A stretch of 64,000 bases of DNA from an uncultured Acidobacteriota bacterium (GCA_963770895.1 CAVYRF010000002.1:672001-736000), one strand, 5' to 3'; counted from the stretch's first letter, positions 8,271 through 56,385 are shown. The notes: generated by a model not told the origin, from the letters alone. Numbers and translations: made by a program.

Positions 8271-8342
8271 GGTCGTTGCGCCGGGGGGCGGCGGCGAGGG
8301 CGCGGGCGCGGGCGGAGACGGGGGCGCGGGCTAAGGCGAAGG

Positions 8343-8480
8343 GGGTTGCCTGGGGAGGAGACGGGAGGGCACCCCTCGGCGTCGCGCTGCGGGCTCGCGG
8401 AGCGATGAGGGCTGGCGGGTAGGGGGTTGCCTCGCCCCAGAGCGCCGCCGAGGGGTCCCTCCCGCCTCCTCAGGGGACCC
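8343..8480. repeat. Long imperfect inverted repeat (about 40-45 bp arms), REP/MITE-like or terminator
   Basis: Left arm ...GAGGAGACGGGAGGGCACCCCTCGGCGTCGCGCT (8343-8388) pairs with right arm AGCGCCGCCGAGGGGTCCCTCCCGCCTCCTCAGGGGACCC (8441-8480). A 12-bp direct repeat AGGGGGTTGCCT occurs at 8340 and 8421. Confidence 0.7.
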
Positions 8481-8509
8481 TCCTCTTTTGCGGGCGGAGC
8501 CGTTGGGGC

Positions 8510-10810
8510 TTGGGTGGCTTAGACTGCTGGGCTGTGGCCTGCCGGGGTTTCGAGAGAACTTTGCTGAGAGGTATTGCCCACGCCTGGGCTCGTGGGGGGC
8601 TACGGCTTTGGGTGGTGGCGTTGGGGGGAGGGTTGGCGGCGTTGGTGGGGGGGTGGGTGTGCTTGGGGGGGGCGGCTTGGGCTGCGATGGGGGGGCGTGG
8701 GGCGTTGCTTGGGGGGGCGGGGTCGGCTGCGGTGGGGGGTGGGGTGGATGTGGTTCTGATTACGATTGATACCTGGCGGGCGGATGCGGCGGGGTTTGGG
8801 GGGCGGCGGCCTTCTCCTACTCCTTTGTTGGATCGGGTGGCGGCGGGGGGGCGGGTGTTTACGAATGCGCATGCTCACAACGTGGTGACGTTGCCTTCGC
8901 ATACCAATATCTTGACGGGGCTGTATCCCTTCCAGCATGGGGTGCGGGACAACGAGGGGTTTCGGTTGGGGGGTGGGGTGCCGACGTTGGCGACGGTGTT
9001 GCGGGGGACGGGGTATGCGACGGGGGCGTTTGTGGGGGCGTATCCGCTGGATTCGCAGTTTGGTTTGGGCCGTGGGTTTGACGTGTATGACGACCACTAT
9101 CCCAAGGGGGGGCGGGCGGACCAGTTTGTGTTCGCGGAGCGGACGGGGGACAGGGTGGTGGCTCCGGCGCTGGCGTGGTGGCGGCAGCAGCGGGGGCGGC
9201 GGCGGTTTCTGTGGGTGCACCTGTTCGATCCTCATGCTCCGTATGAGCCGGCGCCGGAGTATGCGGCGCGGTTTCCGGAGAGCCCTTATTTGGGGGAGGT
9301 GGCGGCGGCGGATGGGTATTTGCGGCCGCTTTTGGAGCCGTTTCTGGCGGGTGCGGAGCCGCCGGCCTTGATCTTGATCACCGGCGACCATGGCGAGTCG
9401 CTGGGGGAGCATGGCGAGGAGACGCACGGGCTGTTTGCGTACGAATCGACGCTGCATATCCCGCTGGTGATCTGGGGGCGGGGGGTGGTGCCGGGGCGGG
9501 ATGGGCGGGCGGCGCGGCATGTGGATATCTTCCCCACGGTGCTGGCGGCGGCCGGCCTGGTGGGCGCGCGGGCGCCGGCGGGGATGGCGCGGCCGGGGCG
9601 GTCGCTGCTGGCGCCGGCGGCTGTCGACGGCCCGCAGGGGGTGGGCGCCGCGGGGGACTCGTACTTCGAGGCTCTGTCGGCAACGTACAACCGCGGCTGG
9701 GCGCCGCTGCGCGGGATCCTGCGGGCGGGGCGCAAGCTGATCGCGCTGCCCCTGCCGGAGCTGTACGACCTGCCGCACGATCCTGGGGAAATGGACAACC
9801 TGGAGGGGCGCGAGCGGCCGCTGGCGCGGTCGCTGGCGGCGCGGCTGCCGCGCGAGTCGGCCTGGCCGCCCGAGCGGCCGCGGCCGACGGCTGCCGAAGA
9901 CAAGAACCTGCGCAGCCTGGGCTATGCCGGCGGCTCGGCGCCGGTGCGGCAGAGCTACGGGCCGGACGACGACCCCAAGCGGCTGATCGGCCTCGATCGC
10001 GAGATCCATGCGGTGATCGACCTCTATCAGCGCGGCAAACCGGGCGAAGCGGCGACGCTGGCGGCCAAGCTGGTGGCGGCGCGGCCGGGCATGCCCCTGG
10101 GCCACTCCCTGCTGGCGGAGGCGCTGCTGCAGAGCGGCCACAAGCGGGAGGCGCTGGCGGCGATGGTGGACGCACGCCAGCATGGGGTGGCGTCGGACGA
10201 CCTGCTCTGCCAGCTGGGACTGACGCTGGCTGAGCTGGGGCGGCCGGAAGAGGGCGTGGCGGTGCTGCAGCCGCTGGCCCAGCGCGGCGTGCCGCAGGCG
10301 CTGGTCGGGCTGGCGCAGGCGCTGTCGGACGCCGGCCGGCAGGATGACGCCGCGGCGGCCCTGGCGCGCGACCTGGCCGCCGAGCCCGACGATGCCGCCG
10401 CCTATGAAGAGATGGCGATGGTCGAGCTGCGCCGCGGCCGGTGGACGGCGGCGCGCGACAGCTGCGACCGCGCGCTCAAGCTCAACGACCGCCTGCCGCG
10501 CGCCTGGAACGATCTGGGCGTCGCGCGCTTCCAGCTGGGAGACGCCGGCGGCGCGGTGGACGCCTGGCGGCGCGCCGTCGACCTGGACGACACGCTGCTC
10601 GACGCGCTGTGGAACCTGGGCCTGCACGCCGCCGCCGTGGGCCGCCCCGCCGACAGCCGCCGCGCCCTGGCCCGCTTCCTCGACCTGGCCCCCGACGCCG
10701 GCTACCGCGACGACCGCGAAAAAGCCCGCCACCTGCTGCGCGCGCTGGACCAAGCCGCCCCCGACGCGCCCGCCCACCCCCCCGGCCCCGGCGGCGGGCG
10801 CCACCGATGA
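8510..10810 (+). CDS. Sulfatase-like (alkaline phosphatase superfamily) hydrolase/transferase with C-terminal TPRs
   Basis: LITIDTWRAD, TLPSHTNILTG, WVHLFDPHAPY, GDHGESLGEHGE, then TPR helices. Start codon uncertain. Confidence 0.88.
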   Translation: MGGLDCWAVACRGFERTLLRGIAHAWARGGLRLWVVALGGGLAALVGGWVCLGGAAWAAMGGRGALLGGAGSAAVGGGVDVVLITIDTWRADAAGFGGRRPSPTPLLDRVAAGGRVFTNAHAHNVVTLPSHTNILTGLYPFQHGVRDNEGFRLGGGVPTLATVLRGTGYATGAFVGAYPLDSQFGLGRGFDVYDDHYPKGGRADQFVFAERTGDRVVAPALAWWRQQRGRRRFLWVHLFDPHAPYEPAPEYAARFPESPYLGEVAAADGYLRPLLEPFLAGAEPPALILITGDHGESLGEHGEETHGLFAYESTLHIPLVIWGRGVVPGRDGRAARHVDIFPTVLAAAGLVGARAPAGMARPGRSLLAPAAVDGPQGVGAAGDSYFEALSATYNRGWAPLRGILRAGRKLIALPLPELYDLPHDPGEMDNLEGRERPLARSLAARLPRESAWPPERPRPTAAEDKNLRSLGYAGGSAPVRQSYGPDDDPKRLIGLDREIHAVIDLYQRGKPGEAATLAAKLVAARPGMPLGHSLLAEALLQSGHKREALAAMVDARQHGVASDDLLCQLGLTLAELGRPEEGVAVLQPLAQRGVPQALVGLAQALSDAGRQDDAAAALARDLAAEPDDAAAYEEMAMVELRRGRWTAARDSCDRALKLNDRLPRAWNDLGVARFQLGDAGGAVDAWRRAVDLDDTLLDALWNLGLHAAAVGRPADSRRALARFLDLAPDAGYRDDREKARHLLRALDQAAPDAPAHPPGPGGGRHR

Positions 10811-13200
10811 CCTTCCGGCGGCGCCCTGCCAGCGGCACGACCGCAGCTGCGGCCTCCGCCGGCATGACCGCGCCATGCACCGCCCGGCCTGGCGGCGGGC
10901 GCGGCGGCGCCGGCACGCGGCGCCGGCACGCGGCCTGGACGAAGGCCAAAACCGGCGTGGCGGCCGTCACTGCCCCGGCCGCGGCAATCGCCATTCTCGT
11001 GGTCATCGCCGCGATCGGCGCCACCGGCTGCCGCCGCGGCAGCGCGCCGGCCCCGGGCGCGGCCGGCGCCGGCGCGACGCTCCGCGTGCCGGCGGCGACG
11101 CCCATCGTGCTGATCTCGATCGATACGCTGCGCGCCGACCACCTGCCGGCTTACGGCTACCGCGGGGTCGAGACGCCGGCGATCGACCGGCTGCGGCGCG
11201 ATGCGATCCTGTTTACCCGCGCGTACAGCCATACGCCGCTGACCCTGCCGTCGCACACCACGCTGCTGACCGGGCTGCTGCCGGCGGCGACCGGGGTGCG
11301 CGACAACGTCGGGTACACGCTGGACGCGGCGCGCGTCGCGAGCGGCGAGCTGCCGTTCTTGCCGCAGACGCTCAAGCAGCACGGCTACGCCACCGGCGCC
11401 GCGGTGTCGGCGTACGTGCTGCACGCCAGGACGGGACTGGCCACCGGCTTCGACTTCTACGAGGATTCGATCGAGTTTCGCACCGGCACGGGCCTGGCCG
11501 GCCTGCAGCGGCCGGGCGACGAGACGCTGCGCCTGGCGCTGCCCTGGCTGCGCGGCGCGGCGGCGGCGCCGGCGCGGCCGTTTTTCTTCTTCTTTCACAT
11601 CTACGAGCCGCACGCCCCCTACGAGCCGCCCGAGCCCTACGCCTCGCGCTACCCGCTCAAGTACGACGGCGAGATCGCCACCGCCGACGCGATCGTCGGC
11701 AAGCTCCTGGCCGAGCTGAAAACGCTGGGCGCCTACGACCGCGCGGTGATCGTGCTGCTGTCGGATCACGGCGAGGGGCTGGGCGACCACGGCGAGGACG
11801 AGCACGGCGTGCTGCTGTACAACGAAGCGATCCACGTGCCGCTGCTGCTCAAGCTGCCGGGCGCCCAATTGGCCGGCCGCACCGCCGGCAGCCCCGCCGG
11901 CCTGATCGACGTGGCGCCCACCCTGCTGTCGCTGCTCGGCCTGCCGGTGCCGGCGGCGCTCCCCGGCGTGTCGCTGCTCAGCCTGCTGCCCGACCGCGGC
12001 GTCTATGGCGAGACGTTCTATCCCCGGCTGCACTTCGGCTGGAGCGACCTGGCCTCGCTGGTCGGGCCGCGCTATCACTACATCGACGGCCCGGACCCCG
12101 AGCTGTACGACCTGCAACAGGACCCGCGCGAGTCCCGCAACCTGCTGCTCGCCGAGCGCCGCGTCGCCGCCGGCATGCGCCGCGACCTGGCGACCTACGA
12201 CCGCCGGCTGGCGCCGCCGGCGGCGGTCGACCCGGCGACCCGCCAGGCGATGGCGGCGCTGGGCTACGTCGGGCGCACCGGCAGCGCCGACTCCGCCGGC
12301 GCCGGCGGACCGCTGCCCGATCCCAAGAGCCGCCTGCCCGCGTTGCGCCAGCTCAAGCAGGGCTTTGCCGCCACCGCGCGCCACGACGCCACCGGCGCCG
12401 CCGCCATCTTCACCCGCCTGGTCGCGGTCAACCCCCAGATGGCCGACGCCTGGGAGTTCCTGGGCCGCGCGCGCGAGCAGCTGGGCGACCCCCAAGGGGC
12501 GCTCGCGGCCTACGCCCGGGCGCTGCGCATCGACCCCGCCGCCGCGCCGGTGGCGCTGGCCGCCGCCGCGCTCTACCTCGATCTCGGCCAGCTCGACGAC
12601 GCCACGGTCCACGCCCGGATGGCGGCCGCCGGCGCCCCCACCTCCGCCCATGCCCTGCTCGCCCAGATCGCCATGCGGCGCGGCGACCTGGACGGCGCCG
12701 AGCGCGAGGCGCACGCGGCGCAGGACGACCAGGGGCGGCGGATCGCGCCGATGGTGATCCTGGCCGAGGTGCTGCACGCCCGCCACCGCTACGACGAGGC
12801 GCTGGCGGAGACCGGCCGTGCCGAGCGCGCCTACGCCGAGCGCGGCGCCAAGGACCCGCAGCTGATCCAGGGGCTGGCGCTGGTGCGCGGCAAGACGCTG
12901 GCCGACCTGGGCGACGCAGCGGGAGCCGAGGCCGCCTTCAAGCAGGAGATCGAACGCTTCCCCACCGACCTGCGGGCCTATCCCAACCTGGCGATCCTGT
13001 ACGCCCTGACCGGCCGCGCCGGCGCCGCGAGCGCCGTCCTGGAGCGCATGGTCGCCGCCCGCCCGTCCGGCGCCGCCTACGCCGAGGCGGTGCGCACCCT
13101 GCGCGTGCTGCGCGATCCCGCCGGCGCCGCGGCGGTGCTGCGCCTCGGCCTCGCCCGATACCCCAAGGACGAGCAGCTGCACGAGCTCGCCAAGCCCTGA
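10807..13200 (+). CDS. Second sulfatase-like/TPR protein (paralogue, possible lipoprotein)
   Basis: LISIDTLRADH, TLPSHTTLLTG, HIYEPHAPY, SDHGEGLGDHGE, TPRs. ATGA overlap with the upstream stop; lipobox-like ATGC after a hydrophobic stretch. Confidence 0.88.
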   Translation: MTFRRRPASGTTAAAASAGMTAPCTARPGGGRGGAGTRRRHAAWTKAKTGVAAVTAPAAAIAILVVIAAIGATGCRRGSAPAPGAAGAGATLRVPAATPIVLISIDTLRADHLPAYGYRGVETPAIDRLRRDAILFTRAYSHTPLTLPSHTTLLTGLLPAATGVRDNVGYTLDAARVASGELPFLPQTLKQHGYATGAAVSAYVLHARTGLATGFDFYEDSIEFRTGTGLAGLQRPGDETLRLALPWLRGAAAAPARPFFFFFHIYEPHAPYEPPEPYASRYPLKYDGEIATADAIVGKLLAELKTLGAYDRAVIVLLSDHGEGLGDHGEDEHGVLLYNEAIHVPLLLKLPGAQLAGRTAGSPAGLIDVAPTLLSLLGLPVPAALPGVSLLSLLPDRGVYGETFYPRLHFGWSDLASLVGPRYHYIDGPDPELYDLQQDPRESRNLLLAERRVAAGMRRDLATYDRRLAPPAAVDPATRQAMAALGYVGRTGSADSAGAGGPLPDPKSRLPALRQLKQGFAATARHDATGAAAIFTRLVAVNPQMADAWEFLGRAREQLGDPQGALAAYARALRIDPAAAPVALAAAALYLDLGQLDDATVHARMAAAGAPTSAHALLAQIAMRRGDLDGAEREAHAAQDDQGRRIAPMVILAEVLHARHRYDEALAETGRAERAYAERGAKDPQLIQGLALVRGKTLADLGDAAGAEAAFKQEIERFPTDLRAYPNLAILYALTGRAGAASAVLERMVAARPSGAAYAEAVRTLRVLRDPAGAAAVLRLGLARYPKDEQLHELAKP

Positions 13201-13302
13201 GGGAAACTTTCGCCGCCGCCGCGGGTTACGGTGCGTGGCGGGCGGCACCGCGCCGCGGGCGCCCCCGCCTTCGCCTGGTCCGCTGCTGCCGAGAGGGATG
13301 AG

Positions 13303-14637
13303 ATGTCCAAAATGGCCTGGTCGGTTGGGGCGGCGGTCGTCGCCGCCGGGATCGGCGGCGCGCTCTACCTGACGCGCACCAAACAGGAGGCGCCCAAGTA
13401 CCGCTCGACGCCGGTCGATCGCGGCACCGTCACCGCGACCGTGACGGCCACCGGCACGCTGTCGGCGGTGACCACGGTCGCCATCGGCAGCCAGGTGTCG
13501 GGCATCATCTCCAAGCTGTACGTGGACTTCAATTCCAAGGTGAAAAAGGGCCAGCTGCTGGCCGAGCTCGACCCGACGCCGTTCATCGAAGCCGAAAACC
13601 AGCAGAAGGCGAACGTCGAAAAGGCCAGGGCCGACCTGCGGTTGTCCGAGATCACCCTGGGGCGGCAGACGCACCTGCGGGACCTGCAGCTGATCGCCGC
13701 CTCCGACTACGACACCGCCGCCGGCGCGCGCGACGACGCGGTGGCCGCGCTCAAGCAGAACGAAGCGCTGCTGCAACAGGCGGAGACCAACCTCACGTAC
13801 ACCAAGATCACGGCGCCGATCGACGGCGTGGTGGTGGACCGCGAATACAACGTCGGCCAGACCGTGGCGGCCTCGTTCCAGGCGCCGCTCATCTTTTCGA
13901 TCGCCCAGGACCTGACCAAGATGCAGGTGCTGACCAATATCGACGAATCGGACGTCGGCGGCATCCAGGTCGGCCAGCCGGCGGAGTTCACCGTCGACGC
14001 CTACCCGGATCGCACCTTCCACGGCACCGTGGCGCAGATCCGCCTGTCGACGACGACGGTGCAGAACGTCGTCACCTATCCGGTGATGATCGACGTGCCG
14101 AACCAGGACAACAAGCTGCTGCCCGGCATGACGGCCAACGTCCTGGTGCCGGTCGCGGTGCGCAAGGACACCCTGCGCGTCCCCAACGCGGCGCTGCGCT
14201 TCAAGCCCGACCCCGCGGACGTGCTCTACCCGCCGGGAGAGCAGCCCTCCCCGGCCGCCGCGGCCGCCGGGGGTGCCAGTGGCGCCGGCGCGCCCAACGG
14301 CGGTGCCGGCCCGGCCGGCCGAGGATTCCCCGACGGCGGCTCGCCATCGACCGCGGCCGGCGGCCGCTCCGGCAGCGGCGCCGGCGGCGGCGCCGCCCAC
14401 AAGACCGCGGCCAGCGGCGACCACGACGTGGTGATCTACCTGTCGCCGCCCAACAGCCGCCAGCTGCGCCCGGTGCACGTCGTCGCCTCGATCACCGACG
14501 GCACCTTCACCGCCGTGCGCTCCGCCGACCCGAAAACGCCGACCCTCAACGCCGGCGACCCGGTGGTCATCGGCCTGCAGACGGCAAAGGCCGGCAACGC
14601 CGGCGGCGGCATGCGCGGCGGCCCCCCCAGGTTCTAG
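13303..14637 (+). CDS. MacA/HlyD-family periplasmic adaptor subunit
   Basis: N-terminal TM, GSQVSGII...VKKGQLLAELD, ITAPIDGVV, GQTVAASFQAP, IDESDVG, LLPGMTA. Confidence 0.92.
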   Translation: MSKMAWSVGAAVVAAGIGGALYLTRTKQEAPKYRSTPVDRGTVTATVTATGTLSAVTTVAIGSQVSGIISKLYVDFNSKVKKGQLLAELDPTPFIEAENQQKANVEKARADLRLSEITLGRQTHLRDLQLIAASDYDTAAGARDDAVAALKQNEALLQQAETNLTYTKITAPIDGVVVDREYNVGQTVAASFQAPLIFSIAQDLTKMQVLTNIDESDVGGIQVGQPAEFTVDAYPDRTFHGTVAQIRLSTTTVQNVVTYPVMIDVPNQDNKLLPGMTANVLVPVAVRKDTLRVPNAALRFKPDPADVLYPPGEQPSPAAAAAGGASGAGAPNGGAGPAGRGFPDGGSPSTAAGGRSGSGAGGGAAHKTAASGDHDVVIYLSPPNSRQLRPVHVVASITDGTFTAVRSADPKTPTLNAGDPVVIGLQTAKAGNAGGGMRGGPPRF

Positions 14638-47213: not shown

Positions 47214-47786
47214 ATGAATGACAGCGGACCCGCCGCTCCGGCGCCGGGGACCGGCGACGAGGAGAGCCGCCGCGACGTCGGCCGCAACGGTGGCAGACGC
47301 CGCGTCGACTGGCGGCGGCTCCTGCTCGCCGTACTCATGAATTTCTACCCGCCCTACCTGGGCGCCGGCATCCGCGTGCGCCTGGCGCCGGCGGTATCGC
47401 CCGCGGCAGGCGGCGCCACGACCAGCGACGGCGCCATCGAAGTGCGCATGGGCCTGCACTTCTGGAACCGCAATATCGTCGGCACCCACTTTGGAGGGTC
47501 CCTCTATAGCATGTGCGACCCCTTCTACATGCTCATCTTGCGGCAAAAGCTGGGGGCGGGCTACATCGTCTGGGACAAGTCCGCGGCCATCCGCTTCCGC
47601 CGCCCCGGCCGCGGCCCCGTCAGCGCCATCTTCGACGTGCCGGAAGATGTGGCCGCCGACATCCGCGCCCGCGCCGATCGCGGCGAAACCGTCCAACCCA
47701 CCTTCCACGCCGAGGTCACGGACCGCAACGGCGAAGTCGTCGCCATCGTCGAAAAGCTCCTGTACGTGCGTCGCCGCCCAATCTGA
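47214..47786 (+). CDS. DUF4442 / PaaI-like hotdog-fold thioesterase
   Basis: NFYPPYLGAGIRV, NRNIVGTHFGGSLYSMCDPF, VWDKSAAIRFRRPG. Confidence 0.88.
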   Translation: MNDSGPAAPAPGTGDEESRRDVGRNGGRRRVDWRRLLLAVLMNFYPPYLGAGIRVRLAPAVSPAAGGATTSDGAIEVRMGLHFWNRNIVGTHFGGSLYSMCDPFYMLILRQKLGAGYIVWDKSAAIRFRRPGRGPVSAIFDVPEDVAADIRARADRGETVQPTFHAEVTDRNGEVVAIVEKLLYVRRRPI

Positions 47787-48055
47787 TCGCCAGCCTGCTT
47801 GTAAGCTCCCCCCACCCCCCTCCGCCCCCCATCCCCATCCTCGACCTGCGGCACCGCCCGCAGCGCTTGCTGGATTTTTAGCTCCATATGGGCAGACCTC
47901 AATCGACCAGAGACGCTAAGACACTGCCCGAAAAGCTCGCGGCTGTCGCGTTGTAGAGCAGGATGTCTGGAACAGCTTGAGACGCCGCTAAACAAACGCG
48001 GCTGGACCGCATCCAAGCTGTCGGCAGGCAGCGCCGGTCAGTGCCGGGAGGCCCG

Positions 48056-51000
48056 ATGGACTGCGAGGACTTGGTGCTCCACCTGGGGGTGCACCCGCTC
48101 GGCGGCTACGACGTGCGGGTAATGGAGTCGCCGGCGGGGCGCGCCCGAGCGCGCTGCATCCAACCGCTGACGGTAAACGGCCAAGCCGCCTTCGCGGGTG
48201 CGGGGCGCAACATCGGCTTGACGCCCCTGGGGTCCGGCCCGGGTGGGCCGCGCCTGTCCCCGCAGGCGATCGGCGACCAGCTGTTCCGCACCCTGTTCGC
48301 CGGCGATGTCAAGGCGGCCTTCGACAAAAGCCTACACCTTGTCGCACAACGCGACCGCATGCTGCGCTTGCAGCTGCGCATCGAGCTGCCCGCCCTGGCA
48401 GACCTCCTCAACCTGCCCTGGGAGCTGCTGTACAACGCCGAGCTCGAAGAGTTCCTGTGCCTCAACCGCCAGACCCCTTTCGTCCGGGCACTCAACGTCC
48501 CCAGATCGGAGCTTCCGGCCGTCCTGCCCGCTGCCCTGCGTGTCCTCGCTGTCGCCGCGACGATCGATGCGCCGAGCTATCCATCGCTTGGCATTGCCGA
48601 CGAGCTGGCCAGGCTGGCGGACGCCGCACGCCGGGCCGGCATCCATTTCGAGGTCGTCGAAGACGTGCGCCGCGCGTCGCTGGCCGCGGCCTTGGACAAG
48701 GGGCGCTTCCATGTCCTCCATTTCCTGGGCCACGGCTGGTTCAACAGCGCAAGCGGGCGCGGCGGCCTCTGCTTCAAGGCGCCGGACGGCACTGCGGAGC
48801 TGGTGGACGGCGCCGACCTAGCGATCGAGCTCAAAGGGCTGCGCGATCTGCAGCTAGTCTTCCTGAACGCCTGCAACACGGGGCGCATCGCCAGCGACGG
48901 CGCCCACCACAGCCCATTTGCAGGCGCCGCCACCGCCCTGGTCCTGGGCGGCCTGCCGGCGGTGATCGCCATGCGCGAGCGCATCGCCGACGTGCCGGCG
49001 ATCGATGTAAGCGTCTCCTTCTATCAAAGCCTGCTGGCCGGGCTGCCGATCGAGGAGGCCGTGCGGCAGGGACGCCTCACCCTGCAGCGGCAGCGCCCGC
49101 GCGAGCTGGCCGAGTGGGCGATCCCCATGCTCTTCCTGGCCGGACGGAGCGTCCCCATGGGCGCCTCCGATGAGCCCGCAGGCGCGGTCGGCTCAGGATG
49201 GGTGCGCGGCCTGCTGGATCGCACCCTGCCACGCTGCCACCAGCTCCTCACCCGCCGCGGCTGGCTGCGCGAGCCGGCGCCGGACATTCGGCGGTACCTT
49301 GCGCAACAGCGGGCCGAGCTCCAATCGGCCCTGCAGGGCAAGACCTACCTGCCGGGTCAGGCCCGGACGGTGCCCACCGGAATCGCCGACCGCGACAACG
49401 ATGCGGCCGGCCCCGTCCACCGGTCCATAGCCGTTTCCATCCGCCAGCTCAGCAGGCGCAGCGGCGAGGCCGATGCCGTCGCCACCGCGACCGCGCAAGT
49501 CACGGCCAGGACCCGCCGGGTCCGCAACCTGATTCAGGCGCTGCTGCAGGCCCGCGAACCGCTGGTGCTGCTGGGTGATCCGGGCAGCGGCAAGACCATG
49601 GCCCTGCAGGCGGCCATGCTGGACCTCATCGACCGCCAGGCGCGTCGCCTCTTCCCCGATGTGCCGATCTATGTGCGGCTGGGTGAGTTCCACGTCGACG
49701 GCCCGGTCGATGCGGACAGAGTGCGCCAGCTGATCCGCCAGGCTGCCTCGCCCCTGGTCCGCCCTTTCCTGGGCGAGCTGGAGCGCGATCGCCGCCTTAT
49801 CCTGCTCTTCGATGGCATCGACGAAATGAGCCGCGACCGCTATGGCGAGCACGTGCGGGCGCTCAACCAGTTCGCGGGTGAGAACCGCGACTCCATCAGG
49901 ATGCTGTTCACCTGCCGCATCGACGACTTCAGCGCAGCCTTCACCCATCGCCGCCTGGTGGTGCTCCCCTTTGGACCGGCCGAGATCGCGCAATACCTGC
50001 GCAGCCATGTGAACGCCTCCTCGCTGCTGATCGACGGCAGGTCGTGGACCGCCGGCGAGCTGGCACGCTACTTCACCGAAAACGAGATCGCCGTCGACAC
50101 CTCCAACCCCTTCGCCCTGTCGCTGCTCTGCGACCACCTGAGCTTTGAAAAGGCCTGGCCCGGCTCGCGCATGGACCTGATTGAATCCTTCCAGAACCGC
50201 AACTATCAGAGAAAGAGCCGCGAAGCGCAGCAGCAGTGGCGAGACCTGCCGCCCGCCGCCACCTGCTTCAGCGCCTGGGCACGATTCGCCTACCTGATCA
50301 CCGAGCGCAGTCGCGGCGACGCAATCCCCGTGCAAGAGCTGCTGGAGCAGCTTGCCGGCGACACGCTGCAGACCATCGCCGCCGGCCTCTGGTGCGGCAC
50401 CCTAGCGCCGGTGGGCGGAGGCCAGGCCGATCAGGTCCGTTTCGAGCATCAACGCTATCGGGAGTACTTCTGCGCACTCTGGATCCACCAGGCAGCGGCG
50501 CAGATCTCGTGGCGCGAAAAACTGGCTTCGCCGCCATGGCAGGAGGCCATGCTGAACCTGGCCCTCATGGGCGGCGGCGGCGGCGGCGTAGAGTCATTGG
50601 CCATACTCATCGTCGACGACCTGCACAGCCTTGCCAAGATCGCCACCAACAACGGCCGGCAGCCCGCATCCGATTCGCCCGCACCGGACGGCGCCGCCCC
50701 GCCGCCGAGCTTCGCGGAGGCAGGGGTGCCGTACGAGCAGGAGGCCGCGCTGGCCGAGCTGGTCGATCTTGCCGCACGCCTCCTGCAAGCCGCGCCCACC
50801 GCACCTGCTGTGCACGAATCGCTGCGGCCCGCGCTAGAGGAGACGCTAAGCGCCCTGGTGGACCGCGGCCGTCCGGTGACCCAGCTCAGGATGATGCGGG
50901 CCTTCCGGCATCTTGACGATATGGAGCTCGGCCAGGTACTCGACCAGCTGACCGCCTCACCGGTGCGCATGGTGAGCGAAATGGCGCTGATCATGGTCAA

Positions 51001-52309
51001 CGGCGCCCGTGGGGGCAGGGGCGTGGGCGCCACTGATCTCGCAACTATTTTTGCTTACAACCTTACGGCCAATCGCATTATCGATCAATGGTTGACGTTG
51101 AGACGCGCGGCGAGGGCCGCCGGCCGCCATAGAAACCTGGCTCATCTGCGCTGTGCGACGGCCTTCGCGGTGCTCGAGCTCGGCCTGCTCCAGCTTCTTG
51201 CAGCAGGTCTTTTCATCGCCATCGTGGCCTCCCTGCACGCCGTGGACAGCAAGGCTCTCCACCCGGCGTTCCTGATCGGTCTGCGGCGACTGACCGGTCT
51301 GCAACTTGCAACTTTCCAATGCGCTATCACCGGCATGGCCACGCTGGTCGGGCTGAAACGCTACCCTTCCAGCGTCGAAGTCTATACCTTGCTCAGTGTA
51401 CCCATCGGCATCCTGTTCCTGGTCGGTTGCTTTTCGATGCTGAATGGCTCGGGGGCGGCGATCTATCTGCTGCTTGCCAGCCCCTTCATCTTCCTGGCGG
51501 GGCCGATCTGCGCGATCCTGTTTGCGCCAATACACCTATTGATCGTGTACCTGTACACCAGGCTACCTGCTTATCTTCGTCCATTTCGCTGCAGCCAAGC
51601 AGCGCTCTTCCGGATGGCGAAGGCGGAGCTGAACCATGCCCTGGATGCGACCAAAGAGGACGGACGAAGTCTGGTGAAGGCCGCCACGGTGCTGCTCCCA
51701 AGGTTTGGCTTCATCGCCCTCCTCTTCTGTGCCGCAGCCAGCGCGCGCGCCGTCAGCGGACTGCTGGGCCTGCCGTATCACCCCTTGATCAGTGAAGCAG
51801 CCGGCGCATCGATGGCGGCCATCATGGCCGCGACAGCCATGCATTTGATCCGCCGCGGCAGCATCTGGTCGATCGTCAAGGTCATGGCAGACACGCTGAT
51901 CAGGTTTGCGCTTGCCGCGACCGTTTCGATTGGATCGATGTACCTGGCGACCCGCTTCACGCACGCAGTCGGCAAGGCAGTCGCCATCTTTGCAGCATTG
52001 ATCGCTTCGCTCATCGCCGGCCGCAAGCTGTGGGACTGGTTGCTTCTTTCACGTGCTCGCCGGCACAAGCTGACCCCAGGCGAAGACTCGCCACAGGAGT
52101 GGACCGAGCGCTTGAGCGGCGCCGATCCCGAAGCGCAAATGCGCCTGCTCGCCGCCACCACCCCCGAAAGCTTAGGGCTATCGCTCGCAGCCTTCGAGCA
52201 CCTGCTGATTCAGGCCGAGCGCAGGGTACTCGCCGAGCCTGCGCTGAGCTTCTATTGGAAACTTCGCGACCAGATCGAACAAGCGCTCCGCCAGGAGCGG
52301 ATCGGTTGA
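48056..52309 (+). CDS. CHAT (caspase-like) protease - NACHT NTPase - multi-TM fusion protein
   Basis: CHAT motifs LPWELL, LHFLGHG (His) and VFLNAC (Cys). NACHT Walker A GDPGSGKT, Walker B LLFDGIDE, sensor TCR, NPFAL, FEHQRYREY. Several C-terminal TM helices. Confidence 0.88.
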   Translation: MDCEDLVLHLGVHPLGGYDVRVMESPAGRARARCIQPLTVNGQAAFAGAGRNIGLTPLGSGPGGPRLSPQAIGDQLFRTLFAGDVKAAFDKSLHLVAQRDRMLRLQLRIELPALADLLNLPWELLYNAELEEFLCLNRQTPFVRALNVPRSELPAVLPAALRVLAVAATIDAPSYPSLGIADELARLADAARRAGIHFEVVEDVRRASLAAALDKGRFHVLHFLGHGWFNSASGRGGLCFKAPDGTAELVDGADLAIELKGLRDLQLVFLNACNTGRIASDGAHHSPFAGAATALVLGGLPAVIAMRERIADVPAIDVSVSFYQSLLAGLPIEEAVRQGRLTLQRQRPRELAEWAIPMLFLAGRSVPMGASDEPAGAVGSGWVRGLLDRTLPRCHQLLTRRGWLREPAPDIRRYLAQQRAELQSALQGKTYLPGQARTVPTGIADRDNDAAGPVHRSIAVSIRQLSRRSGEADAVATATAQVTARTRRVRNLIQALLQAREPLVLLGDPGSGKTMALQAAMLDLIDRQARRLFPDVPIYVRLGEFHVDGPVDADRVRQLIRQAASPLVRPFLGELERDRRLILLFDGIDEMSRDRYGEHVRALNQFAGENRDSIRMLFTCRIDDFSAAFTHRRLVVLPFGPAEIAQYLRSHVNASSLLIDGRSWTAGELARYFTENEIAVDTSNPFALSLLCDHLSFEKAWPGSRMDLIESFQNRNYQRKSREAQQQWRDLPPAATCFSAWARFAYLITERSRGDAIPVQELLEQLAGDTLQTIAAGLWCGTLAPVGGGQADQVRFEHQRYREYFCALWIHQAAAQISWREKLASPPWQEAMLNLALMGGGGGGVESLAILIVDDLHSLAKIATNNGRQPASDSPAPDGAAPPPSFAEAGVPYEQEAALAELVDLAARLLQAAPTAPAVHESLRPALEETLSALVDRGRPVTQLRMMRAFRHLDDMELGQVLDQLTASPVRMVSEMALIMVNGARGGRGVGATDLATIFAYNLTANRIIDQWLTLRRAARAAGRHRNLAHLRCATAFAVLELGLLQLLAAGLFIAIVASLHAVDSKALHPAFLIGLRRLTGLQLATFQCAITGMATLVGLKRYPSSVEVYTLLSVPIGILFLVGCFSMLNGSGAAIYLLLASPFIFLAGPICAILFAPIHLLIVYLYTRLPAYLRPFRCSQAALFRMAKAELNHALDATKEDGRSLVKAATVLLPRFGFIALLFCAAASARAVSGLLGLPYHPLISEAAGASMAAIMAATAMHLIRRGSIWSIVKVMADTLIRFALAATVSIGSMYLATRFTHAVGKAVAIFAALIASLIAGRKLWDWLLLSRARRHKLTPGEDSPQEWTERLSGADPEAQMRLLAATTPESLGLSLAAFEHLLIQAERRVLAEPALSFYWKLRDQIEQALRQERIG

Positions 52310-52563
52310 CCTTTCTCTGGAGGTGATCATGTGGAAAAGCCTTGTCGTGGGTTTCGTGTCCATGCCCCTATCCGGTCTGGCCTTGGTGATCGGTTGGGCT
52401 TCAGGTGGCTTCAAGACGGGGGGGGTGGCAGGGGCCTGCGTCCTGGCGCTGGGCTGGGCTGCCGCCGCCGTCTTGCTTTTCACCATCCGTCATCTGTCGT
52501 TGGTAGACGTCTTTCTACCCATACCGGCGGCGGTTGTCTGGTCGCTTCTGCTGACCGCGGTTA

Positions 52564-53855
52564 GTGACTGGCACGAAATAACTGCTTGATATCTACCCTC
52601 GCGTCAGGTACACTTGATGGGTGGACATCGAGTCCCTGCGCGCGAAATACGAAAGCCTTGCTCCAGCACTGACAGAACGATCACGGCGACTCTGGGCGGC
52701 CACCGAGGCGCGGGCGTTGGGGCACGGCGGGATTGCCTTGGTGGAGCGCGCGACCGGCATCTCTCGATCCACGATCGCACGTGGCATCCAAGAGACGAAA
52801 GCCGGCGCCAGGTTCGGGCCGGAGCGCACGCGTAGGCCGGGGGGCGGCCGCAAGAAGACGATCGATAAGGACGCGACGCTGCTGACCGACTTGGAAGCCT
52901 TGGTCGAACCGACGGCTGCCGGTGATCCTCAGTCGCCCCTGCGTTGGACGTCAAAGAGCGTGCGTCGCTTGGCGGCGGAGCTTCAAGTGTTGGGGCACAT
53001 TGCAAGCCACCGTCTGGTCGCCGAGCTCCTGCAGGCGAGCGGCTACAGTTTGCAGGCTAACCGGAAGACCCGCGAGGGATCTCAGCATCCTGATCGCGAC
53101 GCGCAGTTTCGCTACATCAACGAGCAGGTGCGTCGCTACCACAAACGGGAGCAGCCGGCCATTTCGGTGGACACGAAGAAGAAGGAATTGATCGGAGACT
53201 TCAAGAATGCCGGCCGGGAGTGGCGGCCGAAAGGCGAGGCCGAGCCCGTGCGGGTGCACGACTTCGTGATCCCCGAGCAGGGCAAGGCGATTCCCTACGG
53301 CGTCTACGACCTGCACCGCAACGAGGGCTGGGTCAGTGTCGGGATCGATCACGACACGGCGAGCTTCGCGGTGCACGCGATCCGGCGATGGTGGCAACTG
53401 ATGGGCCGAGCGGTTTACGGTAGCGCCACATCGCTGCTCATCACGGCGGATAGCGGCGGGAGCAACGGAGCCCGCGTCCGCCTGTGGAAGTGGGAGCTAC
53501 GAGAGCTCGCCGAACGCACTGGCCTCTCGATCACCGTCTGCCACCTCCCTCCCGGGACCAGCAAGTGGAACAAGATCGAGCACCGCTTGTTCTCCTACAT
53601 CGCGATGAACTGGCGCGCCAAACCGCTGGTGAGCCTGGCCGCCATCGTCAGCCTGATTGGCTCGACCACCACGACGGCTGGGCTGAGGGTCAGGTCCGAG
53701 ATCGACAAGGGTAGCTATCCGCAAGGCCTCGCCATCACGGACCAACAGATGGATCAGATCAATCTCAAGCGTCACACCTTCCACGGGGACTGGAACTACA
53801 CAATTTACCCAGGCAAACCTCAGAGCAAGTAAAGCAGTTATTTCGTGCCACGCCC
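52564..53855 (+). mobile_element. ISAzo13-family insertion sequence, 1292 bp, 3-bp TTA target duplication
   Basis: Left IR GTGACTGGCACGAAATAACTGCTT and right IR AAGCAGTTATTTCGTGCCACGCCC share a 19-bp perfect core. TTA at 52561-52563 and 53856-53858. Confidence 0.92.
52621..53832 (+). CDS. ISAzo13-family DDE transposase
   Basis: RRPGGGRK, GDPQSPLRWTSKS, GYSLQAN.K, ISVDTKKKE, PYGVYD, DHDT, ITADSGGSN, PGTSKWNKIEHRLFS, FHGDWNY. Confidence 0.95.
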   Translation: MDIESLRAKYESLAPALTERSRRLWAATEARALGHGGIALVERATGISRSTIARGIQETKAGARFGPERTRRPGGGRKKTIDKDATLLTDLEALVEPTAAGDPQSPLRWTSKSVRRLAAELQVLGHIASHRLVAELLQASGYSLQANRKTREGSQHPDRDAQFRYINEQVRRYHKREQPAISVDTKKKELIGDFKNAGREWRPKGEAEPVRVHDFVIPEQGKAIPYGVYDLHRNEGWVSVGIDHDTASFAVHAIRRWWQLMGRAVYGSATSLLITADSGGSNGARVRLWKWELRELAERTGLSITVCHLPPGTSKWNKIEHRLFSYIAMNWRAKPLVSLAAIVSLIGSTTTTAGLRVRSEIDKGSYPQGLAITDQQMDQINLKRHTFHGDWNYTIYPGKPQSK

Positions 53856-54584
53856 TTAGCGTGGGTGGGAATGCTTTTACCGCACCCGCATGCATCGGCT
53901 CGGCCATCCTACTCTCCATCAACCTGTGGATGGTGCGCCAGGGGAAGTTTGCCAAAAGCTGGGCGATCATCCCCATCACCGTCTTCATCTACGAGATGCT
54001 GCCGGTCAACATCCCGGGGCCGTTCGACGACTACTTCTCATTTGGCGGCGATGCCGCCGTCCTGCTGCTGCAGGGCGCGATGTACACGTTCCGCAAAGAG
54101 TCGGCGCCGCTCGACGCCGCTGAACCGACCCGCAGGCTCTATCCGTAGGACCCGGCGATCGGCGCTGCTGTGCCTGCCTGCCGGCCGGCAGGTGCGGCAG
54201 CGGGCCGGCGCCCGGTAGACGGCAGGCGACTCGCGGGGCGCCGTGGCATGCGCGAAGCGGGGGTGTCTTCGCCTACGCGCCCCGGTGCGGGGCGAGGCGC
54301 TGCCATCGGAACTTGCGGCCGCCCGCGAGGACACGACCTGCAGCCACTCAGCCTTGCGCAGGCTCTGCGTATCGGATAAGAATGAGCGCGTATTGTCGTT
54401 TCCACAAAGAGACGGCCAGCAGTGCCGGCCACCCGGCCATCGCACCGGGCGTTTCGCGGCGGCCAGGCCGGCGGGCGCCAACCGGCGGCGAGCGCCGCTC
54501 CCAAACCGGATCTTGCCATGGCGCTCCGCGGCGCACCGGATATCGAGATCGCCGGGCGAGAACAACGGCAACAAGGAGCTGTGA

Positions 54585-54917
54585 TTGAGTCTCTCAACTC
54601 GTGGGCACAAGGGGTCTGGCGCGGAATCCGGCGAAGGAGGCGCTGTAGCAAGTATATATAGGACCTTTGTCGAGTTAGCGGCCGAAGTCGCTGTTCTTCT
54701 GCTCGTTGTCGGCATCATCGCGGTGCTCAATTTTCTACTGCGCCTGACGATCGGCAACGCCAGCAGCCGTTGGACATGGATACCGATCGAGATCCTGGAT
54801 GCAGTGACCTTGTTGGCCGGCTGTACTCTCGCAGTGGACCTGGTGGGTCGCAGTTTGTGGAAAGTGTACAAGGAGCTGTCGCGAGAAGACGCCCATAAGG
54901 CACCCTCCGATGACTAA
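54585..54917 (+). CDS. Small two-TM hypothetical membrane protein
   Basis: Two hydrophobic helices; its stop overlaps the next ATG. Start uncertain. Confidence 0.55.
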   Translation: MSLSTRGHKGSGAESGEGGAVASIYRTFVELAAEVAVLLLVVGIIAVLNFLLRLTIGNASSRWTWIPIEILDAVTLLAGCTLAVDLVGRSLWKVYKELSREDAHKAPSDD

Positions 54918-55329
54918 GGATCAGGAGAAGCCAGAAGCCCGACCAGGGAAGCTCGGCGGGCTCCTGCGGTCTGACCCGGAACTGTCCTTCGTCGTCGGCG
55001 TCCTGAAGAAAATGGCAGGATTCCTCGTCATCGCCCTGTCCGCCGTCGGAATTGAGAAAATTGTCGACGTCCTCACAGCGCATCACGCCTCGAAGCTGGT
55101 CATCTTGCTCCTAAACCTTCTGGCAGGCGCAATCGTGATCGTCGATGCCGTCTGGTTCACCATCTACCTGATCGTCGAAGCGGTCGAATCGATCGCAACC
55201 TTGCTCAAGGGCAAGGCTTCAAAAGTAGCAATAGCCGCGACACTGATCATCCTGGGAGCCATCGCCAGCCCCTACCTGAAGACCTGGCTTGCAGCCTTGA
55301 TCCAGACCATCGCCAGCCAGAATCGCTGA
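54910..55329 (+). CDS. Small three-TM hypothetical membrane protein
   Basis: Three hydrophobic helices; translationally coupled (ATGACTAA) to the upstream ORF. Confidence 0.65.
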   Translation: MTKDQEKPEARPGKLGGLLRSDPELSFVVGVLKKMAGFLVIALSAVGIEKIVDVLTAHHASKLVILLLNLLAGAIVIVDAVWFTIYLIVEAVESIATLLKGKASKVAIAATLIILGAIASPYLKTWLAALIQTIASQNR

Positions 55330-55599
55330 CCGGACCGGCCGCGACGGCCGACCCGCGGTTCAGGAATCTGCCGCCCAGGTTGGACTAGGATGCGCCGGGT
55401 CGATCCGCTCCTTCCAGGACTGCCCCCAATCAGGGACAGGCGGCGCAGCCGCGGCGGCGGGCGGCCCGCATCGTGGACCTGCGGCAGGGGCTGGGAACAC
55501 CGGAAGCATGGATGCTGTCCTCGTACGGTGCGGCGCTGCCGCCCGGTCGCCAAGTCGGCCCGCCTTGTCAACGGTGCGGGCGGCGGTTAAGCTACCGGG

Positions 55600-56385
55600 A
55601 TGCATCGCTGCACACGGATTTCCCGCTTCCTTCGGCCTGCCGGCCGTCCCGTCGTCGTGCTTTGCCTGCTGCTGACGGTGGCGCTCGCGGCGCTCACCGC
55701 CGCCGGGGCCGCGGCCGATACGCTGCTCACGGTCAAGGGGCATACGGACGGGGTGAAGATCGGCACGCGGGCGCAGGAGCCGCGCGATTCCGAAGTGAAA
55801 ATCTGGATTGCCAGCGACAAGATGCGGCGCGACGAAGGGACGCTGTCGGCGATCGTGCGCCTGGACCGCAAGAGGCTCTACTTGATCAACCACACCGACC
55901 GCACCTACACGATGGTGGACCTGCCGGTCGATTGGACCAAGCTGGTGCCGCCCCGTGACCAGGACAGCTTCAACCGCTTCTTGACCGACAACGCGATGAA
56001 GGCGGCGGTCACGCCCTCCACGGAAGCCAAAAAGATCCGCGGTTGGGACACCCATCGCGTCGATGTGGAGCTGACCAACTCCCACGGCCTGAAGGTCTCG
56101 ACGCAGATGTGGGTGACCAAGGACCTGGCGTTCTACACCGCCTACAATCAGATGTCCGCCAACCTGGCCTCGCTGCAGCCCAACGCCGCCGAATGGGCGC
56201 AGAAGATGAGCCAGCTGGGCGGCTTCCCGGTGTTCCAGGAAACCACGGTCAACGTCGGCGGCAGCAGCTTCAAATCGCGGGAAGAGCTGGTGGCGGCCGA
56301 CACCAAGGACGCACCCGCCGGCACCTACGACATCCCGGCGGGATTCACCGCCACCCCGTTCGACCCCTACAACGCGCCGCACTGA
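55600..56385 (+). CDS. DUF4412-like exported protein
   Basis: Signal peptide, KIWIASDKMRRD, LYLINH..RTY, EAKKIRGW, MWVTKD, GFPV, YDIPAGF. Confidence 0.7.
   Translation: MHRCTRISRFLRPAGRPVVVLCLLLTVALAALTAAGAAADTLLTVKGHTDGVKIGTRAQEPRDSEVKIWIASDKMRRDEGTLSAIVRLDRKRLYLINHTDRTYTMVDLPVDWTKLVPPRDQDSFNRFLTDNAMKAAVTPSTEAKKIRGWDTHRVDVELTNSHGLKVSTQMWVTKDLAFYTAYNQMSANLASLQPNAAEWAQKMSQLGGFPVFQETTVNVGGSSFKSREELVAADTKDAPAGTYDIPAGFTATPFDPYNAPH

Follow-up and report, generated by a model that had tools for sequence, protein, structure and literature searches.

A 64,000-nucleotide stretch of the genome of an uncultured Acidobacteriota bacterium from soil (GCA_963770895.1, CAVYRF010000002.1:672001-736000; hereafter the window, with positions counted from its first letter) carries on its plus strand, at 48056–52309, an intact gene for a 1417-residue protein in which a CHAT caspase-like protease and a NACHT NTPase are followed by helical repeats, a polytopic membrane region and a soluble tail. 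We consider it probable that this is a membrane-embedded conflict protein resembling the nucleotide-binding leucine-rich repeat receptors (NLRs), that it belongs to a clade in which one chassis accepts interchangeable effectors, and that it is present here as a cassette on a recently gained 7.9-kb insertion. The chassis would comprise a linker ahead of the NACHT domain, the NACHT domain itself, HEAT-like repeats, a hypervariable bundle of about eight predicted membrane spans and a conserved, presumably cytoplasmic tail, and the CHAT domain would be the effector.

Results

Domain architecture of the large protein

The open frame runs from 48041 to 52309, and the ATG at 48056 has GGGAGG in front of it. 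The preliminary description of this stretch, made from the sequence alone, had proposed a protease-NTPase-membrane fusion, and that architecture stands: a single 1417-residue frame holds an intact His/Cys dyad, Walker A and B motifs, a helical region, about eight transmembrane (TM) helices and a tail of 90 residues. The CHAT domain (residues 71–357; 48266–49126) matches Pfam PF12770 with an E value of 6.2e-33 (114.9 bits, against a gathering cut-off of 24). Both dyad motifs are intact, HFLGHG at 222–227 (His226) and FLNAC at 269–273 (Cys273), and they align with HFIGHG and LNAC of 8tl0_A (E 0.01), the sole solved CHAT protein returned by a sequence search. Among the CHAT-type sequences that cover the site, that of the window included, the histidine is kept in 9/9 and the cysteine in 10/10.

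The chassis starts with a conserved linker (residues 374–500; 49175–49555), which is seen in alignments A1 and A3 and is matched by BLAST in 91 of 154 family sequences. The NACHT NTPase (residues 502–653; 49559–50014) is recognised by Pfam at E 2.5e-10 (40.9 bits, gathering cut-off 26.7). Its Walker A motif is GDPGSGKT (507–514), which fits the pattern GxxxxGK[ST], and its Walker B motif is LLFDGIDEM (583–591), within which DGIDE at 586–590 fits the NACHT-defining signature D[GAS]hDE. The motifs are invariant in all 16 rows of alignment A3; across the 154 family sequences, some of which are fragments, the Walker A pattern is present in 145 and the D[GAS]hDE pattern in 151. The region behind the NACHT domain (residues 654–850; 50015–50605) contains many invariant columns and presumably forms the helical and winged-helix parts found in signal transduction ATPases with numerous domains (STAND proteins).

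For the C-terminal module, an AlphaFold2 model of residues 880–1417, built on 16 aligned sequences, has a mean pLDDT (predicted local distance difference test) of 70.7 and a pTM (predicted template modelling score) of 0.61, and consists of well-predicted helical repeats, long helices across the hydrophobic part and a confidently folded helical tail. The repeats (residues 887–1025; 50714–51130) are modelled in blocks at pLDDT of about 72–89 and appear HEAT/ARM-like, with VIA-align Z scores of 8.2–9.3 to HEAT, TOG and ARM repeats that lie under the noise level of the tool for helical repeats. Next comes the polytopic membrane region (residues 1026–1325; 51131–52030), the fastest-evolving part of the protein, for which hydropathy and the modelled helices indicate about eight TM helices. 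Strongly hydrophobic 19-mers are confined to residues 1031–1323, bar three buried segments of the soluble domains, and Arg/Lys-rich sequence precedes the first span, makes up the middle loop and follows the last span. Under the positive-inside rule, such a distribution fits a topology in which the protein crosses the membrane eight times, both ends are cytoplasmic and the loops on the outer side are very short. The conserved soluble tail (residues 1326–1417; 52031–52306), which includes EPALSFYW and LRQERIG, is modelled at pLDDT of about 85–93, has invariant W, Q, L, P, A and Y columns in 16/16 rows and is matched by BLAST in 111 of the 154 family sequences.

A Foldseek comparison of the C-terminal module with the PDB gave no match at E≤0.001. 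A wide VIA-align search with the same module returned HEAT/ARM-type repeats only (Z up to 9.3), on its first 165 residues, and no meaningful match for the bundle and tail; when PDB sequences were searched using the chassis profile, only P-loop matches to dynein came back. A scan for promoters and terminators gave a result at chance level.

A constant chassis with interchangeable effectors

A word-indexed homologue search found six relatives, all alike from residue 374 to the C-terminal end, whose N-termini were CHAT, TIR/SEFIR, SMEK_N or of no known kind. On the strength of those six the family looked far rarer than it is, and an exhaustive search corrected the count. Scanning a single genome for each species yielded 37 loci, 21 of which encode the same chassis at 27–42% identity, and a metagenome scan contributed three further full-length members and one fragment. 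Taking the loci of both scans as labelled in their records, chassis carriers occur in at least eight phyla, among them Acidobacteriota, Gemmatimonadota, Planctomycetota, Chloroflexota, Verrucomicrobiota and Bacteroidota, together with several proteobacterial lineages. The exhaustive profile search, run against 1.84 billion cluster representatives with the chassis alone as query (16 sequences, 1058 positions), returned 339 proteins at E≤1e-30, and among the 150 matches listed all have E≤1.6e-156. The tail is reached by 123 of the 154 family sequences. By these sequence matches, the chassis family comprises at least 150 cluster representatives and is patchy and thinly spread, though not tiny. 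Viral contigs yielded no family member; there the chassis drew generic NACHT matches only (23–26%).

The N-terminal part is a different matter in each group of relatives. Effectors in the 21 genome loci are TIR (8), TIR/SEFIR (2), CHAT (2), caspase of the Peptidase_C14 family (1), trypsin-like (4), Mrr nuclease (1) and effector-associated domain EAD1 (1), with two unrecognised. When 121 N-termini were clustered, TIR was the commonest (40), with 22 of trypsin type, 8 of CHAT and smaller groups including SMEK_N, PNP_UDP_1, SIR2_2, EAD2, EAD11, bDLD1, bDLD3, DUF4062 and one form with a helix-turn-helix (HTH) and NB-ARC. A FastTree phylogeny of the NACHT-to-repeat region (147 sequences, eight with fewer than 450 aligned positions being omitted, and support values unexamined) implies 28 effector changes over 98 labelled tips with ten types, the minimum being nine; the CHAT forms fall into two neighbouring groups and one distant place. 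Such swapping of N-terminal effectors on a constant chassis marks, as far as comparison of sequences can tell, a STAND protein of conflict systems. The preliminary proposal of an NLR-like conflict protein is thereby upheld, in that relatives keep everything from NACHT to tail and exchange the effector in front of it.

Two further features of individual relatives may be recorded. The HTH-NB-ARC form (P0051, 1538 aa) places its NB-ARC ahead of the NACHT-TM chassis, which gives two STAND NTPase modules in one protein. At loci L001 (near 12631) and L012 (near 12946) the large gene loses its reading frame a little ahead of the tail and the protein match resumes in another frame, reflecting either assembly frameshift errors or real decay.

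Divergence of the membrane bundle

One protein, P0003, is the nearest relative of the window protein in every region, with identities of 58% in CHAT, 45% in the linker, 57% in NACHT, 55% in the repeats, 39% in the TM region and 58% in the tail. A BLAST search with the TM region matches just 2 of the 154 family sequences, whereas the chassis regions outside it match from 91 to 154, so the membrane part is hypervariable in sequence.

We next have to ask what a hypervariable bundle might do. If it served as an anchor only, tethering the protein to the inner membrane, then sensing would fall to the cytoplasmic HEAT-like repeats and the tail, as it does to the soluble repeats of other STAND proteins. 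The window protein has very short periplasmic loops, as an anchor might, and its HEAT-like region and tail are 55–58% identical to P0003 against 39% for the bundle, with BLAST matches in 119 and 111 sequences against 2 of 154. However, one or two helices would be enough for an anchor, yet a crude hydropathy count predicts four or more spans in 127 of 128 family sequences, over a TM region with a median of 338 aa. Certain positions within the bundle also recur, for instance a fourth-helix His and the motif LP[YFW], and the conserved parts of the protein are unlikely receptors for fast-evolving invaders. We therefore regard a purely anchoring role as rather unlikely.

Plant resistosomes have membrane-inserting helices. 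By analogy, the bundle itself might be the effector, its TM regions forming a pore or channel upon oligomerisation, with the N-terminal enzyme acting as a second arm. A constant chassis would suit such a role, as would the two of 21 genome loci that lack a recognised N-terminal enzyme and the members that bear adaptor domains only. The two enzyme-less loci, L003 and L012, nevertheless have an EAD1-trypsin gene directly upstream and so would still recruit an enzyme; no channel fold was matched (Foldseek 0 at E≤0.001); and in STAND proteins, according to the available text of the published accounts, the variable C-terminal part is the sensor. A pore-forming bundle is thus very unlikely in our estimation, and a sensory role for it remains the one that we prefer.

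The nucleotide composition of the bundle had attracted attention in the preliminary description, where an AT-rich TM-coding part was taken to suggest a swapped sensor module. The compositional observation is correct, with a GC content of 0.613 against 0.66–0.74 upstream (window 0.701, large gene 0.669, island open reading frames (ORFs) 0.565–0.635), but the swap we reject: all regions, the TM region included, are nearest to P0003, and GC at third codon positions (GC3) declines as a gradient and is low also in the tail and the downstream genes. GC3 is 0.86–0.91 in the flanking core genes, falls within the large gene from 0.87 in CHAT to 0.74 in the tail, and is 0.63–0.83 in the other island genes. 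At first codon positions the TM-coding part has a GC content of 0.61, so part of the drop is a matter of amino-acid composition. The gradual GC3 gradient and the bias towards hydrophobic residues account for the AT-rich part with no exchange of modules.

A small membrane-protein gene beside the close CHAT forms

A second gene begins 19 nt past the stop of the large gene, with GGAGGTG in front, and is present in the window in two parts on the plus strand. The 5′ part (52329–52564; codons 1–78 and 2 nt) was located by tblastn with the orthologue at locus L001 (P0012), and the 3′ part (53860–54148), with its invariant YEMLPVNIPGPFDDYFSFGGD motif, by tblastn (67% to P0012), by its ORF and by alignment A5. 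The 173-residue P0012 matches the window as 52329–52565 and 53858–54082, the two segments abutting at query residue 79. Relative to an intact homologue, P0021, the 5′ half is 79% and the 3′ half 84% identical, and neither has any other defect. A neighbouring membrane protein had been suspected in the preliminary description; its gene does accompany the close CHAT forms as a conserved neighbour, and an insertion sequence (IS) interrupts it here.

In the close CHAT forms this partner is a polytopic membrane protein of 174 aa that falls in no known family. Its relatives make up 21 clusters of 146–194 residues with an invariant YEMLP-N-PGPFDD-F-GG motif, and have no match in Pfam, PADLOC or NCBIfam; the ESM Atlas returned 'hypothetical protein' clusters only. 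The predicted structure (pLDDT 82.5) is all-helical with six membrane-length helices, the best hit of a fold search being a designed protein (Z 8.4) and Foldseek giving no matches at E≤0.001.

Clustering of neighbours at all loci placed the small ORF directly 3′ of the CHAT-type gene both in L001 and in the window. Furthermore, P0014, of the partner family, lies on a JGI contig of 7814 bp, which is also the length of the contig of P0003, the CHAT form, and makes it probable that the pairing holds in 3/3 close CHAT loci; no further pair of contigs of equal size was seen among the other CHAT-type and partner clusters. When the partner family (alignment A5) was searched for in 401 genomes of the phylum of the window and 401 of that of L001, only the two known genomes matched, and viral contigs contained no partner relative. 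A predicted complex of the TM-plus-tail part (alignment A4, residues 135–538) with the partner family (A5) scored 0.00, controls not having been run, and speaks neither for nor against an interaction. We infer that the close CHAT forms come as a two-gene cassette, in which the partner is most likely the dedicated target or the executioner of the protease.

Other branches of the family have other neighbours. In L016, L017 and L021 the trypsin forms have Trypco1 on their upstream side, and the TIR-type loci share no common conserved neighbour, so the partner tracks the effector or the sub-clade and not the chassis. In a set of 139 crudely defined neighbour ORFs, taken up to a distance of 6 kb at 18 loci, 14 match PADLOC models at E≤1e-5 and are spread over nine of the loci; among them are bSEFIR, mad3/mad8, a TIR protein, a Cas4-like nuclease with a LeoA-like pair, a caspase and a type II methyltransferase. 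The 139 leave out two near-duplicate loci, the window's own neighbours and twelve ORFs, eleven of which had already been scanned with Pfam and one of which is very large.

Two loci have striking surroundings. At L019 a 1021-aa protein with a C-terminal CHAT domain (5934–8999) precedes the Peptidase_C14 member (8996–13030) with a 4-nt overlap, so that two caspase-like proteases stand in tandem. At L008, a metagenome-assembled genome of Longimicrobium, the truncated-CHAT member is directly followed (8685–13914) by a dynamin-family GTPase with a glycine zipper (564 aa) and a LeoA-like protein (1073 aa), a pair that may represent membrane remodelling linked to a membrane NACHT protein.

Interruption of the partner gene by an ISAzo13-family element

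The IS reported in the preliminary description is genuine. It is a 1291-bp ISAzo13-family element on the plus strand (52565–53855), identified from Pfam, NCBIfam and its repeats, with a transposase gene at 52621–53832 (Pfam DDE_Tnp_ISAZ013, E 1.3e-139; NCBIfam ISAzo13, 580.9 bits against a cut-off of 200). Its ends are imperfect terminal inverted repeats, with 33-nt arms that are 82% complementary, and it is flanked by a TTAG target duplication at 52561–52564 and 53856–53859. The element interrupts codon 79 of the partner gene. Some 34 kb further downstream, outside the window (G000:C2:758713-760003), there is a second copy with an identity of 100% across the 1291 bp, and nine diverged partial copies occur elsewhere in the genome; the IS is probably active in this genome. 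A metagenome contig from run X1 bridges 51719–53150, although it may come from the source sample. The break in the partner gene is taken to be recent, since the IS has an identical twin and the gene halves carry no other defect.

Since the IS splits the partner gene, the system may be disabled in this organism. The question of whether the cassette is a decaying relic here concerns its present function and is compatible with the conflict role proposed above. Besides the IS inside codon 79, a relic is suggested by the sequencing runs, which are DNA only, no RNA run being listed: in four soil-metagenome runs from one study the stretch is present as short, low-depth contigs, and no contig joining the partner halves without the IS was reported, a weak observation at such depth, where parts lacking cover carry no meaning. 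Against decay, the large ORF is intact with all of its motifs, the partner halves are otherwise undamaged (79% and 84% to intact P0021), and the perfect identity of the IS twin dates the break as recent. The large protein might also act alone, as TIR-type relatives do without a conserved partner gene. On balance we would put inactivity of the cassette in this genome at a little short of an even chance.

The insertion and its host genome

The two genes lie on a 7.9-kb insertion (47776–55696, no strand assigned) between a DUF4442 and a DUF4412 gene, delimited by the synteny of its flanks in the same-genus genomes G009, G003, G001 and G008 and by its lower GC and GC3. Just 89 nt separate the DUF4442 gene from the DUF4412 gene in G009; three other same-genus genomes are also without the DUF4442 gene. 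A different insert, of 2.7 kb, occupies the same site in G002 (C112; L082 1078-3766), with no Pfam family on its eight candidate ORFs, and the site is thus variable in a hotspot-like manner. The large gene is single-copy in the 8.16-Mb genome, and matches to it were found in 0/9 same-genus and 1/24 same-family genomes searched, the sole match being a distant form at 33% identity. It is an accessory, island-borne gene, in keeping with the earlier description of a compositionally distinct island.

The CHAT domain has HetF as its best NCBIfam match (E 1.6e-18), which raises the question of whether the protein is instead a HetF-like membrane protease, serving housekeeping or development through regulated proteolysis rather than conflict. 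The 9/18 loci without a PADLOC neighbour might be read in the same way. The match, however, covers the CHAT part only and reaches 66.5 bits against a cut-off of 1200 (NF045509); the gene sits in an insertion and is absent from 9/9 same-genus genomes searched; and relatives bear TIR, SIR2, Mrr nuclease or Death-like adaptors on the same chassis, which is at odds with a housekeeping role. We find this alternative barely credible.

Two small ORFs of the island, on the plus strand at 54585–54917 and 54910–55329 (110 and 139 aa, with an 8-nt overlap) encode several hydrophobic helices and form its lowest-GC part (GC 0.565 and 0.574, GC3 0.63 and 0.74). Pfam, PADLOC and NCBIfam assign neither to a family, neither is conserved beside relatives, and the pair could constitute a small membrane module of its own within the insertion. 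An imperfect 21-nt direct repeat (18/21) lies just inside the insertion ends at 47833–47853 and 55466–55486, 7633 nt apart, and could be the remnant of an attachment site or a chance occurrence; there is no integrase near the island and no tRNA within 40000–62000. At the left edge, within the 270 nt that separate the DUF4442 gene from the start of the large gene, a C-rich tract with CCCC and CCCCC runs spans 47806–47850.

Discussion

Considering the architecture together with the swapping of effectors, a working scheme can be proposed. At rest the protein would be an auto-inhibited monomer in the inner membrane. A cue within the membrane or at its outer face, for which a phage membrane protein or a perturbation of the envelope are candidates, would alter the bundle and the tail; the NACHT module would then exchange its nucleotide and oligomerise in the plane of the membrane. 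The clustered CHAT domains may become active in the way that caspases do on the apoptosome or inflammasome, and would cut their targets, whereupon growth of the infected cell would stop.

A bolder version of this scheme makes the cassette a gasdermin-free analogue of a membrane inflammasome, with the fast-evolving bundle as an intramembrane receptor that would recognise phage membrane proteins or a breach of the envelope, and the clustered CHAT protease, once activated, trimming the cytoplasmic C-terminal tail of the six-helix partner so as to convert it into a permeabilising executioner. The partner family has an invariant acidic loop, YEMLPxNIPGPFDD. We think this version unlikely to be right. 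If it were true, the partner would be a new membrane death effector gated by a protease, and the large protein the first receptor of the NLR kind to sense inside the bilayer; to our knowledge, the bacterial STAND or NLR-like sensors with known triggers all bind soluble phage or host proteins.

The wider interest of the clade does not depend on that version. One chassis, at least 150 sequence clusters and more than ten interchangeable outputs amount to a natural experiment, and since the outputs are interchangeable, the trigger of the shared membrane sensor could be read out through any convenient one, for example a TIR NADase. The CHAT form is a compact two-gene cassette, and its partner protein is a candidate for a caspase-like protease target other than a gasdermin. 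Seen from this genome alone, the finding amounts to an ordinary accessory gene that the IS has probably crippled.

A number of observations weigh against a membrane-sensing conflict protein with a dedicated partner. The second half of the TM bundle is modelled at pLDDT below 50, and hypervariability of the TM region could mean relaxed constraint on a mere anchor and not sensing. The partner gene was directly seen at two loci only and none was found in the genome of the truncated-CHAT member at L008, and as its 21 clusters outnumber the close CHAT forms, the family may also serve other systems. The count of PADLOC neighbours, having no background control, is suggestive and not an enrichment, and some of the matches are generic (a kinase, a sigma-54 activator). 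On the island itself Pfam, PADLOC and NCBIfam recognise no defence gene besides the large one. For the large protein PADLOC, with a library dating from 2023, names no system and gives SAVED_CHAT over residues 162–337 (E 4e-9) and a weak AAA match only, and NCBIfam yields only sub-threshold matches, to HetF as described and to the NACHT antiphage protein EruA (NF058535; 26.8 bits against 1000, across 26 P-loop residues). Lastly, a literature search found no study of the NACHT-TM clade and no tested member, supplements that might list the clade being outside its coverage.

Comparison with known systems

The preliminary description had not recognised the protein as belonging to a named system. 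PADLOC is in agreement with this, but the kind of protein is listed in print: Kibby et al. (bioRxiv 10.1101/2022.07.19.500537) sorted about 20,000 bacterial NACHT (bNACHT) proteins by C-terminal category, and 'TM regions' is one of the categories. The available text of that study gives the N-terminal effectors as caspase and trypsin peptidases, TIR, SIR2, restriction endonuclease, EADs and Death-like domains, defines NACHT by D[GAS]hDE, and reports that sensors follow the NACHT phylogeny and effectors vary. The window protein shares with the 'TM regions' category the tripartite order of effector, NACHT and sensor, the D[GAS]hDE Walker B, multiple TM helices after the NACHT domain, peptidase effectors with caspase-like ones among them, and variation of the effector (Kibby et al., 10.1101/2022.07.19.500537). 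The category is a general one there, however, and the HEAT-like region, the eight-span bundle, the tail, the CHAT form and the partner are absent from the portion of the text consulted, although Table S1 may list members. None of the tested bNACHT proteins is shown here to belong to this clade, and the Avs, bNACHT and EruA models give no match to the large protein beyond the P-loop.

The nearest parallel for a protease with a membrane-acting partner is the gasdermin operon. Johnson et al. (bioRxiv 10.1101/2021.06.07.447441) describe, in the text available, gasdermin-adjacent CHAT and Peptidase_C14 proteases, some of them fused to NACHT or to repeats, so that both arrangements set a caspase-like protease with NACHT beside a membrane-acting partner, with a proposed sequence of sensing, proteolysis and membrane damage. 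Here, in contrast, the neighbour is a 174-aa all-helical polytopic protein and the sensor itself would be embedded in the membrane; no gasdermin lies beside the protease, and the neighbouring ORFs of the island carry no Pfam family.

The effector-swapping is reminiscent of the EAD, bDLD and Trypco grammar of NTP-dependent conflict systems (Kaur et al., eLife 2020, PMC7159879; 2021, PMC8195603). Members of the present family likewise bear N-terminal EAD1, EAD2, EAD11, bDLD1 and bDLD3 domains, have EAD1-trypsin or Trypco1 genes next door, and exchange caspase, trypsin and TIR on a constant core. The systems treated in the accessible parts of those papers are vWA-MoxR ternary, GTPase and FGS/STAND systems, and a NACHT core with a C-terminal polytopic sensor is not described there. 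With the Avs (AVAST) STAND NTPases, as far as the part of the source consulted goes, there is a shared plan of STAND switch, N-terminal effector, C-terminal sensor and oligomerisation upon recognition (Nature 2026, PMC13581612). The known Avs sensors, by the same partial account, are soluble and bind phage proteins directly, and the searchable part of the supplements to PMC13581612 makes no mention of a membrane or of CHAT.

Taken against these systems, bacterial NACHT proteins with C-terminal TM regions are a kind already in print, to judge from the available text of Kibby et al. What this analysis adds is modest: a definition of the clade by its chassis, and a two-gene cassette specific to the CHAT form, which includes an uncharacterised small membrane protein and which an IS has broken in this genome.

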